DNA of 14,145 bases from the IMG/VR virus record IMGVR_UViG_2740892369_000006. One strand, written 5' to 3'. Source of the stretch: a virus. Its lineage: Duplodnaviria > Heunggongvirae > Uroviricota > Caudoviricetes. Position numbers: made by a program. Positions 9,001-12,000 of the stretch are shown piece by piece (position 1 is the stretch's first letter; every line of letters starts with the position of its first letter).

Positions 9001-12000
9001 CTGATGTCTGATGCCATTCCGAAAGCACACAAGACCGAAGCAATAAATCTCCAGTCCGTTCTGCTTATCTTCGATTCATGACAGCCAATCATCTTTGCCA
9101 GACCGCGCTGGGTAAGCGTTGACAGGTTGATGAGTAAATCTGTTTCTGCGCGATCAATTTCTCGCTGTGTTAGCTTGCTGTAACTTGCTTGTGCCATTTG
9201 TTAATTTTCCTATATTGATATATAGCGGCACACCCAGTGGATTTGCCGCTGATGTTTGCTCACCCGGTTAGAGGTGAAAGGCCAGAACTGTTAAAGAGCA
9301 ATTTACTTATGCCGCTTGGCGGTAAGCACTTTCTTGATACTTCAGGGCGCCAGCTGTAACGATTTCCAATCGATAGGCGTCTTTCTCTGGGATAACTTCT
9401 TTCCACTGAGAGACTGCTGCATCGCTAATGCCTAGTGCTTTAGCAACAGCACGCTGGGTTCCGAAGTGGTCAATAACATCTTTTTTGTACATAGACTCGC
9501 TCCGAAATTAAAGAACACTTAAATTATCCACCAAAGGAATCTTAAGTCAAGTTTATTTAAGATGTCTTAACTATGAATACACAACTGATGGGTGAGCGTA
9601 TTCGCGCTCGCAGAAAAGAACTCAAGATTAGGCAGGCTGCCCTTGGCAAGATGGTTGGCGTGTCTAATGTTGCTATTTCCCAATGGGAGCGATCTGAAAC
9701 TGAGCCCAATGGCGAAAACCTATTGGCCTTAGCCAAGGCTTTGCAGTGCTCCCCTGATTACCTGTTGAAAGGAGAGGATAGTCTTTCAAACATTGCCTAT
9801 CACAGCAGGCATGATCCAAGAGGTTCGTATCCTCTAATTAGTTGGGTAAGCGCAGGATGTTGGATGGAAGCTGTAGAGCCATATCATAGGCGTGCAATAG
9901 ATAACTGGTACGACACAACGGTAGATTGTTCTGAAGACTCTTTTTGGCTCGACGTTAAAGGTGATTCAATGACTGCCCCGGCAGGACTGAGTATTCCTGA
10001 AGGGATGATTATTCTCGTCGACCCAGAAGTCGAACCACGTAATGGAAAGCTGGTAGTCGCCAAACTTGAAGGAGAAAACGAGGCGACATTCAAAAAGTTA
10101 GTTATTGATGCCGGTAGAAAATTCCTGAAACCACTCAATCCACAATACCCAATGATTGAAATCAATGGGAACTGTAAAATCATTGGCGTTGTCGTTGATG
10201 CCAAGCTAGCAAACCTTCCTTAAGGGGCTTTCGCCCCTTTTTTATTTCCCGTTAAAAATCAAAGACAAACTAAATTCGCGCCCATAAAATTAAGTTTTCT
10301 TCAAAAATGCACTTGACCAAAAAATTAAGAGGTCTTAATTTTAAGCCGTCAGCAGGAGGCTGGAAGCCAAACGGAACAGATTGGCAGGCTCTTTAACATC
10401 GACGAACTCTCAACCTAACCGTTGAGACCAGAACTTGAGTGGTTTTGGGGATGGCGCGAATTGCAGCTGCAAGACAGCGATCGAGAAGATAAGCACCTCG
10501 ACGCGTCATGCGCCAAAGCCACTTAAAGGAGACCATCATGGTAACCATTGTCTGGAAAGAATCCAAAGGTACGGCAAAAAGCCGCTACAAAGCTCGCAGA
10601 GCAGAACTTATTGCCGAGCGACGCAGTAATGAAGCACTGGCGCGAAAAATTGCGCTAAAGCTCTCTGGTTGCGTCAGAGCAGACAAAGCAGCATCACTAG
10701 GAAGCCTTTGCTGCAAGAAGAAAGAAGAAGTTGTTCGAAAAAATAGAAGTATTTATTACAAGGATTCAAACCCATTAGGAAACAAAATACATGCAGTCCA
10801 AAAAATAAAATTGTACAGTAAACTACCGTACGGTGCTTATTGAGTATGCTTATGGTGAAAAAGACTATTTATGTTAATCCTGACCGCGGACAAAACAGAA
10901 AAGTATCTGATAGAGGTCTTACATCTCGAGACAGGAGGAGAATAGCGAGATGGGAAAAGAGGATAGCATATGCATTAAAAAACGGTGTAACACCTGGATT
11001 TAATGCTATAGATGACGGTCCTGAATATAAGATTAATGAAGACCCAATGGACAAAGTTGACAAAGCATTAGCAACACCATTTCCTCGCGATGTCGAAAAA
11101 ATTGAAGATGAAAAATATGAGGATGTAATGCACAGAGTTGTTAATCACGCTCACCAACGAAATCCAAATAAAAAATGGTCATAGCCCACTTCGGTGGGTT
11201 TTTTATTGGCTGAACTAACCTAATTTATTACAGCAAGCCACGCAGTGAAATGGGTGTGACTTGTGTTGGTCGCCAGAAAATGAAATTAGGCAGCAAACCA
11301 CTTATTTGAGGTGAGATATGACAAAATCATGGAGCGTACCTTTTCCTGAATCAGAAACTGAACATGATGGAATGCCTGTTTTCTGGAGATTCCAGGCGAC
11401 AGTTGAAGAAGATGGGATAAAAATATTCGCACTTCAATATATAGCTTTTCATCAGACAGAGCATTATGCATGGTTGGTTCCTGCGCATTGGATTGTTAAT
11501 TTTAAACCAGCACCAAATCAGTGGTTACAGGAATGGAAACAAAGGAGAAATAGATATGCAATTAAGAAAGTAGCAAAAAATGCAGAAAGATCTTTTGCAT
11601 TCCCAACGAAGAAACTTGCTATTGAAAGTTTATTGCGCCGGAAGAAATACCATTTAATGAGAATAAAACAAGATTTGGCTGTTGTATCAACTCTTGTTGA
11701 TGGGATGAAAAATATTGATACATCAACACCAGATATTGAATATAACTTTGGACACAACCAAGAAACAGAAAATTGGGTATTTTATTAGTACGAGTAAGCA
11801 CTGTGTATTCATTCCAACGAGTGAATACACGGAGCAATGTCGCTCGTAACTAAACAGGAGCCGACTTGTTCTGATTATTGGAAATCTTCTTTGCCCTCTA
11901 ATGTGAGGGCGATTTTTTTCTGTGAGGATATGAACAGATGTCAAACATCAAAAAATACATCATTGATTACGACTGGAAAACATCAATAGAAATTGAAATC

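Follow-up and report, generated by a model that had tools for sequence, protein, structure and literature searches.

A probable orthologue of the HK022 nun gene behind N in an imm21-type lambdoid prophage of Escherichia coli

The window, which is the whole 14,145-nucleotide stretch of IMG/VR virus record IMGVR_UViG_2740892369_000006, carries directly behind its N gene a short basic open reading frame (ORF) that is very probably an orthologue of nun, the gene for the transcription-arrest factor of phage HK022; it is found here in an E. coli prophage, lambdoid and of imm21 type. By analogy with HK022 the product is predicted to be a prophage-encoded superinfection-exclusion factor, with which the lysogen would be defended against lambda. 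The finding is one that is already known and explained: work on Nun goes back to 1987, and both NMR and cryo-EM structures of it exist.

The gene and its product

The coding sequence and the starts that may be used are as follows.

10846 to 11184, + strand: nun coding sequence, 112 aa plus stop (ORF list and translation, PHROG, PDB and annotated phage Nun)
10852, + strand: alternative nun start, ATG, giving 110 aa, as annotated in the HK022 record AF069308
10855, + strand: alternative nun start, GTG, giving 109 aa, which matches the chain length and first residue of PDB 6ALG

The frame is unbroken from the ATG at 10846 to a TAG stop at 11182-11184 and starts 3 nt after the TGA stop of N (10841-10843), which confirms its place directly after N in the pL operon as given in the initial annotation; the 113 aa stated there had included the stop codon, the true length being 112 aa. 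The frame had also been described as AT-rich and its product as basic, and both descriptions hold, with a GC content of 0.375 (0.44 for the window and ~0.50 for the adjoining replication genes) and a computed pI of 9.65 overall; along the chain, the N-terminal half is very basic (pI 11.5), the middle acidic and the tail basic. As had been remarked before, no strong Shine-Dalgarno sequence precedes either ATG (10846 or 10852), the sole element resembling one ahead of the nun starts being a GAG at 10842-10844, and the candidates for the start are 10846, 10852 and 10855.

The product had at first been taken for an orphan belonging to no family, a view that is overturned by PHROG 5632, by matches to PDB 6ALG and 1HJI and by annotated orthologues in phages. 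PHROG 5632, 'Nun-like transcription termination factor', was matched with an E value of 4.5e-71 over residues 1-112 of 112, whilst chain N of 6ALG ('Transcription termination factor nun') is identical to residues 4-112 at 108 of 109 positions (E 2.5e-71) and tblastn against HK022 gave 99.1%. The single difference from 6ALG chain N is found at residue 14 of the 112-aa reading, where Ser is replaced by Arg, which is the commoner state in the Nun family. Nun is annotated in mEp235, HK022, HK75 and O276, and no feature of the sequence speaks against naming the protein Nun.

The Arg-rich stretch RDRRRIARWEKR, which had suggested nucleic-acid binding, would correspond to the boxB-binding ARM, as the ARM DRGLTSRDRRRIARWEKRIAYALKNG is identical at 26 of 26 residues to the Nun peptide of PDB 1HJI, which is in complex with lambda boxB. 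At the other end of the protein the C-terminal arrest residues listed in a cryo-EM study (PMC5386594), H93, R94, N97, H98, H100, R102, K106, K107 and W108 in the 109-aa numbering, are all kept in ...MHRVVNHAHQRNPNKKWS, and the motif MxRVVNHAHQRNxxKKW is unchanged across six homologues, including that of a Hafnia phage which is 41% identical. Both the ARM and the C-terminal arrest segment are identical to those of HK022 Nun (6ALG chain N, 1HJI, HK022_47 of AF069308).

Nun has been called a homologue of lambda N (PMC4124055), and like Nun the N proteins of lambda and phi21 have an N-terminal Arg-rich helix that sits on boxB RNA, a dependence on Nus factors and a C-terminal contact with RNAP. The outcome is the opposite, with Nun causing arrest and N antitermination (PMC5386594), and the HxxxNHxHxRxxxKKW arrest segment at the C-terminus is peculiar to Nun. 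The N_peptide profile (Pfam PF25694) did not recognise the nun ORF, which was also without a match in scans of Pfam (E up to 1), NCBIfam and PADLOC. These scans are blank because the models are missing and not because the protein is novel, PHROGs and the PDB naming it outright.

Signals around nun and its proposed mode of action

The control elements of the gene and of the neighbouring N gene are listed below.

10791 to 10819, + strand: putative nun promoter, as annotated in O276, with a -35 of ATGCAG (10791-10796), a -10 of TACAGT (10814-10819) and a 17-nt spacer
11183 to 11207, + strand: intrinsic terminator after nun, AGCCCAC-UUCG-GUGGGU then UUUUUUAUU (terminator scan)
10538 to 10843, + strand: N antitermination gene, 101 aa (PHROG 271, 'anti-termination protein N-like', E 4.6e-31)
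10388 to 10427, + strand: nutL, with boxA GCTCTTTAA at 10388-10396 and boxB TCTCAAC-CTAACC-GTTGAGA at 10408-10427 (pattern searches)
9260 to 9299, - strand: nutR, downstream of cro, with boxA GCTCTTTAA at 9299-9291 and boxB UCACCU-CUAACC-GGGUGA at 9277-9260

The putative promoter sits within the 3' end of the N coding sequence and was located by an exact sequence match to the GenBank annotation of O276, which carries the HK022 immunity region and has features named 'nun gene promoter -35/-10 sequence'. The 62-nt block containing the annotated promoter is identical at 62 of 62 positions between the window and HK022/O276, it is kept in HK75 and in PA28 it has one change, which lies in the spacer. 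A generic sigma-70 scan of the window did not flag the nun promoter, because its -35 is poor. King, Madsen and Weisberg reportedly mapped the nun promoter in 2000; the coordinates given here follow the O276 annotation.

A hairpin and T-run terminator right after the ORF had been noted at the outset and is indeed present, with the hairpin at 11183-11200 (core CCCAC-UUCG-GUGGG) followed by TTTTTTATT to 11207, and a predicted RNA fold of -12.3 kcal/mol (z -1.8). HK022 likewise has a terminator directly after the nun stop, with a stem of CCCGC/GCGGG in place of CCCAC/GUGGG, a compensatory change (A-U in the window, G-C in HK022). mEp235 shares the hairpin letter for letter, and in HK75 and PA28 it has degraded, thus a terminator that abuts the gene is neither universal nor essential to nun loci. 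For transcription from pL it would hold the place of the first leftward terminator after N. In the window an Rfam scan returned the cIII thermosensor only, and at nun it gave no RNA element.

The N gene upstream scores below threshold against Pfam N_peptide (18.4 bits, with a cutoff of 27.9), and its residues 8-29 are identical at 22 of 22 positions to the phi21 N peptide of PDB 1NYB. The boxB of nutL folds into a stem of 7 bp capped by a CUAACC loop and is of the phage-21 type, not the lambda type, and a search for lambda boxB (GCCCTGAARAAGGGC) allowing up to 2 mismatches gave 0 matches within the 14-kb window. Judged by these elements the resident phage is imm21-type, and because its own nut sites are of the phage-21 type, with CUAACC-loop boxB and a phi21-type N, Nun should leave its transcripts alone. 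Nun targeting its own phage was considered and rejected on the nut-site sequences, which have CUAACC loops, with no lambda boxB in the window.

The mechanism proposed is drawn from published work on a Nun differing at one residue, which describes the binding of the ARM to lambda boxB, the entry of the C-terminus into the RNAP cleft and stimulation by Nus factors (PMC5386594, PMC4124055), with exclusion restricted to lambda and lambda imm434 (PMC4124055). In the lysogen nun would be transcribed from its own weak constitutive promoter within the 3' end of N, which is presumed to fire here, and the transcript would end at the hairpin right after the gene. The N-terminal Arg-rich helix of Nun would bind the boxB of nut RNA from a superinfecting lambda or 434-type phage, where it would compete with lambda N, aided by NusA/B/E/G, and the C-terminal 23 residues would enter the active-site cleft of the transcribing RNAP and block translocation. 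Early transcription of lambda would then be stopped shortly beyond nutL and nutR, and the infecting phage could not grow. We infer from this that a lysogen of the present prophage would exclude lambda, and the published exclusion range of lambda and imm434 suggests that phi21-type boxB would be ignored.

A second, self-directed role for Nun in a phage that bears N, in which it would damp pL and pR of its own or a co-resident prophage by competing with N at nut, is very unlikely. The position of nun 3 nt past N, on the same pL transcript, does mean that both would be made early in lytic growth, of the 221 E. coli genomes with nun 211 have the N-nun tandem, which recurs in a distant Hafnia phage, and excess Nun arrests RNAP without a nut site and is toxic (PMC4124055). 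However, the boxB of this phage is of the phi21 type with its CUAACC loop, there is no lambda-type boxB in the window and the ARM of Nun is identical to a peptide specific for lambda boxB; furthermore, the literature gives Nun no role beyond the exclusion of lambda and imm434, and HK022 nun mutants grow and lysogenise normally (PMC4124055).

Origin and spread of the cassette

How superinfection exclusion by Nun may have come to an imm21-type phage is suggested by a second piece of N, which lies downstream of the nun terminator.

11223 to 11309, + strand: N21 3'-end remnant, 28 codons plus stop, with no start

When the window is compared with phage 21 (the imm21 N of BL21(DE3)), nun is found within a 472-bp insertion in N that is bounded by a 10-bp direct repeat, ATTTATTACA, at a spacing of 472 nt, with the 3' end of N21 resuming after the insert. 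The first 10 nt of the remnant (ATTTATTACA) repeat positions 10751-10760 within the live N gene, and from the repeat to the stop the remnant aligns with the imm21 N of BL21(DE3) with 2 mismatches. mEp235, PA28 and E. coli E2865 have this remnant too, and HK022 and HK75 lack it. The moron arrangement that had been proposed for the gene is borne out, at the sequence level by a putative promoter and a terminator of its own, by its insertion relative to phage 21 and by its deviant GC content.

The live N gene is itself 80% identical to the imm21 prophage N of BL21(DE3), with nearly all of the differences falling past residue 60, and over its last 36 codons it is almost the same as the N remnant ahead of HK022 nun. 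On this alignment N is a mosaic, the N-terminal two thirds being of phage-21 type and the C-terminal ~37 codons a diverged allele travelling with nun, and the nun cassette and the RNAP-contacting C-terminal third of N travel together as one recombination unit.

HK022 resembles the window in having nun between cI/pL and cIII in the leftward operon, but it has no N gene, the 36-codon N remnant being all of N that precedes nun there, in contrast to the full N of the window, and its antitermination proceeds via put RNAs (putL is annotated in O276). Downstream of nun HK022 has IS903 whereas the window has the N21 3'-end remnant. As HK022 lacks N and yet keeps a fragment of the nun-linked N allele, it probably descends from, or has recombined with, a phage carrying N and nun.

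Phages with the N-nun tandem include mEp235, mEpX1, Kapi1 and PDP110P1, with PA28 and Stx1a-converting phages at ~92% DNA identity. The mEp235 group has the same order as the window, of repressor, nutL, N and nun, with 98-99% DNA identity over N-nun. mEp235 itself, at 99.1% DNA identity, has mEp235_038 annotated 'transcription termination factor Nun' directly after N, and both it and PA28 have the same N21 3' remnant after nun; the gene downstream is a 207-aa ORF in mEp235 and a 156-aa ORF in the window, the locus being otherwise essentially the same. In the RefSeq entry for PA28 the annotation is at fault, N having been extended and Nun cut to 45 aa, and the full Nun ORF is intact.

Among 5426 complete E. 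coli genomes nun was found in 221, with a DNA identity of at least 99% in 156 of them, and nutL-N-nun at a coverage of at least 80% was found in 211, which makes the N-nun tandem the commonest arrangement in E. coli; it is also found in a distant Hafnia phage. In all six of the orthologues and homologues examined the frame is unbroken; the frameshifts or stops in related prophages that had been named at the outset as a refutation are thus not seen, and the ORF is more than a chance reading frame. Among the E. coli phage copies pN/pS is 0.04-0.26, indicating that nun is under purifying selection.

It is extremely unlikely, given this conservation, that nun is a decaying passenger which hitch-hiked with recombination in N and is now unexpressed or useless. 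The gene is certainly a mosaic insertion beside a dead fragment of N, it has a weak Shine-Dalgarno sequence and RefSeq labels it "hypothetical" among the E. coli genome matches listed, but every copy examined has an intact ORF with a pN/pS of 0.04-0.26, the promoter block is identical to that of HK022 at 62 of 62 positions, the functional residues are all kept and 156 of the 221 E. coli records are at a DNA identity of at least 99%. The first interpretation, of an uncharacterised basic nucleic-acid binder for anti-defence, anti-restriction or host takeover, can practically be dismissed, for whilst the gene does lie between N and the region where phage 21 has ral and has no Pfam, NCBIfam or PADLOC match, the protein is 99% identical to a characterised Nun with a different, defined function (PHROG 5632, 6ALG), and the blank scans are explained by library models that are missing, PHROGs having the family.

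Significance for lambdoid prophages

The biological weight of finding nun here is small, as Nun has long been studied and N-nun is already annotated in mEp235. A search of the literature found nothing specific on Nun in N-encoding or Stx phages, and it is distinctly unlikely, if conceivable, that in phages with both genes Nun acts beyond the exclusion of lambda, on the transcription of co-resident or incoming lambdoid prophages, for example in EHEC with its many prophages. Separately, that nun and the C-terminal third of N move as one unit is a hint that Nun and the C-terminus of N may be co-adapted.

The label "hypothetical protein" is carried in RefSeq by 15 of 15 E. coli genomes among the matches listed (221 being nun-positive in all), with O26, O103 and other Shiga-toxin-producing strains amongst them, because Pfam and NCBIfam do not have a Nun model. 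A characterised Nun that is labelled as hypothetical is an annotation gap, and one that is easily closed. Beyond this, the nun locus is a clean example of the acquisition of a moron, in which the insert, the junction repeat and the displaced N remnant can all be seen.

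Identity of the gene downstream of N

The window, shown with the leftward (pL) operon on the + strand, spans the early genes of a lambdoid prophage, and the gene under study lies directly after N.

Principal genes of the window
on the - strand: Q, nin genes, P, O, cII and cro
9573-10223, +: repressor
10538-10843, +: N
10846 (ATG) to 11182-11184 (stop), +: nun ORF, 112 residues
after the nun ORF, +: cIII, kil, gam, bet and exo

The ORF starts 3 nt past the TGA of N and is AT-rich (GC 0.375 vs 0.44 for the window), its protein (pI 9.65) is strongly basic over the N-terminal half, acidic in the middle and basic again at the tail, and no convincing Shine-Dalgarno was found ahead of either ATG. 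The initial annotation had described an AT-rich gene after N with a basic product, its own terminator and a poor Shine-Dalgarno, which is right apart from a length of 113 aa that is one residue too long. It also regarded the product as an orphan of no family, which does not hold, as by its sequence the product is Nun. A PHROGs scan matched the whole protein to 'Nun-like transcription termination factor' (E 4.5e-71), all 109 residues of PDB 6ALG chain N ('Transcription termination factor nun') align to residues 4-112 with one difference, and residues 22-47 are identical (26/26) to the Nun peptide of PDB 1HJI. HK022 Nun differs at a single position, residue 14 of the 112-aa reading, where HK022 has Ser and the window Arg; the site is outside both functional segments, and Arg is the commoner state among homologues. 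The residues probed in arrest studies (H93, R94, N97, H98, H100, R102, K106, K107 and W108, in the numbering of the 109-aa form) are all kept, and the motif MxRVVNHAHQRNxxKKW is invariant even in the 41%-identical homologue of Hafnia phage Pocitis76. Every defining feature of the Nun family that is open to a sequence test appears to be present. Pairwise pN/pS is 0.04-0.26 among five E. coli phage copies and every copy examined has an intact ORF, so the loss of conservation that would have counted against the gene was not seen.

The gene can look like an orphan because Pfam and NCBIfam hold no model for Nun and RefSeq labels the E. coli protein (WP_000930321.1) 'hypothetical protein' in all copies among the matches listed. 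Nun has been described as an N homologue (PMC4124055); a profile search did not place the ORF in the Pfam N_peptide family.

The mechanism of the window Nun is taken from literature on a protein one residue apart. The C-terminal 23 residues of Nun enter the active-site cleft in the elongation complex, where they block translocation, with arrest boosted by NusA/B/E/G when lambda boxA is present, and its level in HK022 lysogens is ~100 nM (PMC5386594). Biologically, Nun is known only to exclude lambda and lambda imm434, two phages with common nut sites, and nun mutants of HK022 show normal growth and lysogenisation (PMC4124055). An earlier suggestion of an anti-defence or host-takeover factor is unsupported: Nun is encoded by the prophage and defends the lysogen against a competing phage.

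Expression and insertion of nun

The GenBank record of O276, a phage with the immunity region of HK022, comes from one of the authors of the work on the nun promoter and marks a 'nun gene promoter' (-35 ATGCAG, -10 TACAGT), and exact sequence mapping found the 62-nt block with both hexamers identical in the window.

Features flanking nun
10791-10796 (-35) and 10814-10819 (-10), +: predicted nun promoter, from the O276 annotation, within the last 20 codons of N
to 11207, +: terminator-like hairpin directly 3' of the nun stop, AGCCCAC-TTCG-GTGGGT then TTTTTTATT
11223-11309, +: last 28 codons and stop of N21 (the N gene of phage-21 type), 2 mismatches, after the nun terminator

King, Madsen and Weisberg (J Bacteriol 2000) reportedly found the promoter to be constitutive in the repressed prophage, with a second, weaker promoter just upstream, and transcripts were reportedly expected to end just downstream of nun. 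A consensus scan, which gave 5 terminator-like sites in 1.25 kb vs 1.2 expected, picks out the hairpin as one of them; it folds at -12.3 kcal/mol, shows a compensatory stem change (CCCAC/GTGGG in the window vs CCCGC/GCGGG in HK022) and is eroded in HK75 and PA28. In lytic growth N-modified pL transcription would need to read through it to reach cIII, kil, gam, bet and exo, so it would also hold the position of the first leftward terminator.

The nun gene sits on an insertion relative to the imm21 N gene. The window N matches N21 exactly over ~60 residues and departs from it thereafter (80% identity over the whole length), with the diverged C-terminal segment being the sequence that HK022 keeps as a dead N fragment. 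HK022 (1497-1620 of its stretch) lacks an N gene and has, immediately upstream of nun, 36 codons of an N C-terminus, which nearly match the live N of the window at its 3' end and have the stop mutated from TGA to TGG; the nun promoter sits within this fragment. In the window the N21 remnant leads on into an unchanged ribosome-binding context for the gene that follows, and a 10-mer direct repeat, ATTTATTACA, at 10751-10760 and 11223-11232, 472 nt apart, bounds a 472-bp nun cassette. Phages mEp235 and PA28 and E. coli E2865 share this layout of insert, repeat, remnant and replaced N end; HK022 and HK75 lack the remnant. The C-terminal third of the live N is a replacement that arrived with nun. 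About 600 further complete E. coli genomes carry the N21 5' part alone, with matches, among those listed, that break near 10720-10731. Taken together, these comparisons make the moving unit the N C-terminal third, nun promoter, nun and terminator. This is in keeping with the classic picture of a moron, as the initial annotation had suspected.

Distribution and neighbouring genes

Searching phage genomes by tblastn gave 30 records with Nun, among them HK022, HK75 and O276, where nun occurs without N, and mEp235, mEpX1, Kapi1, PDP110P1, PA28 and a set of Stx1a-converting phages. Phage mEp235 has 99.1% DNA identity over nutL-N-nun, and in its GenBank record 'antitermination protein N' comes just before 'transcription termination factor Nun'. 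Among 5426 complete E. coli genomes 221 carry nun, 211 of them with the full nutL-N-nun block. In the RefSeq annotation of PA28 (NC_041935, 1194-1839 of its stretch) N is extended into nun and Nun shortened to 45 aa; the ORF itself is intact at 112 aa (or 117 aa). The Pocitis76 gene (1638-2267 of its stretch), 3 nt past N and annotated merely 'transcriptional regulator', keeps the C-terminal RVVNHAHQRNxxKKW but differs in its arginine-rich segment, a hint that it targets another RNA. In that phage a tRNA-Gly closely precedes N.

Further features of the window
11318-11788, +: 156-aa ORF, PHROG 1636, AT-rich, function unassigned, between nun and cIII
11938-12306, +: 122-aa ORF, DUF2528, AT-rich, function unassigned, between nun and cIII
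12366-12424, +: Lambda_thermo (Rfam), cIII mRNA thermoregulator, 88.5 bits, start of cIII

In the imm21 prophage of BL21(DE3) the slot before cIII holds ral and then the same DUF2528 gene. Elsewhere, a 617-aa ORF at 3152-5005 (+; 590 aa from the RefSeq start at 3233), on the strand opposite to the surrounding nin genes, sits in an AT-rich island (GC 0.26-0.37 over 2800-5200), ~230 nt downstream of a hexanucleotide repeat, (AAATAG) x 8.8, at 2865-2917. It had no match in Pfam, NCBIfam or PADLOC, within the phage collection it is found only in two Stx1-converting phages (two records each), and it has the look of another moron, so far uncharacterised. About four tandem 20-bp repeats (TCCCTCGTTTTAAGGGAATC-like) at 8444-8520 fall within the replication gene O, where lambdoid phages have their iteron-type origin.

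Compatibility with the resident phage

By its sequence, the resident phage belongs to the imm21 type. The repressor and Cro of the E. coli E2865 prophage (100% match) share their protein accessions with the repressor and Cro of the BL21(DE3) imm21 prophage, and N residues 8-29 are identical (22/22) to the phi21 N peptide of PDB 1NYB.

nut sites, both with a CUAACC-loop boxB hairpin
10388-10396 (boxA) and 10408-10427 (boxB), +: nutL
9299-9291 (boxA) and 9277-9260 (boxB), -: nutR

No lambda-type boxB was found in the window with up to 2 mismatches allowed. As the reported specificity of Nun is for lambda/434 nut sites and those of the window are phi21-type, Nun is predicted to spare its own phage. 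A literature search found no paper describing the insertion junction of nun, which is a minor evolutionary detail. The identity and function of Nun are already known, and its specificity would explain how N and Nun coexist in one phage.
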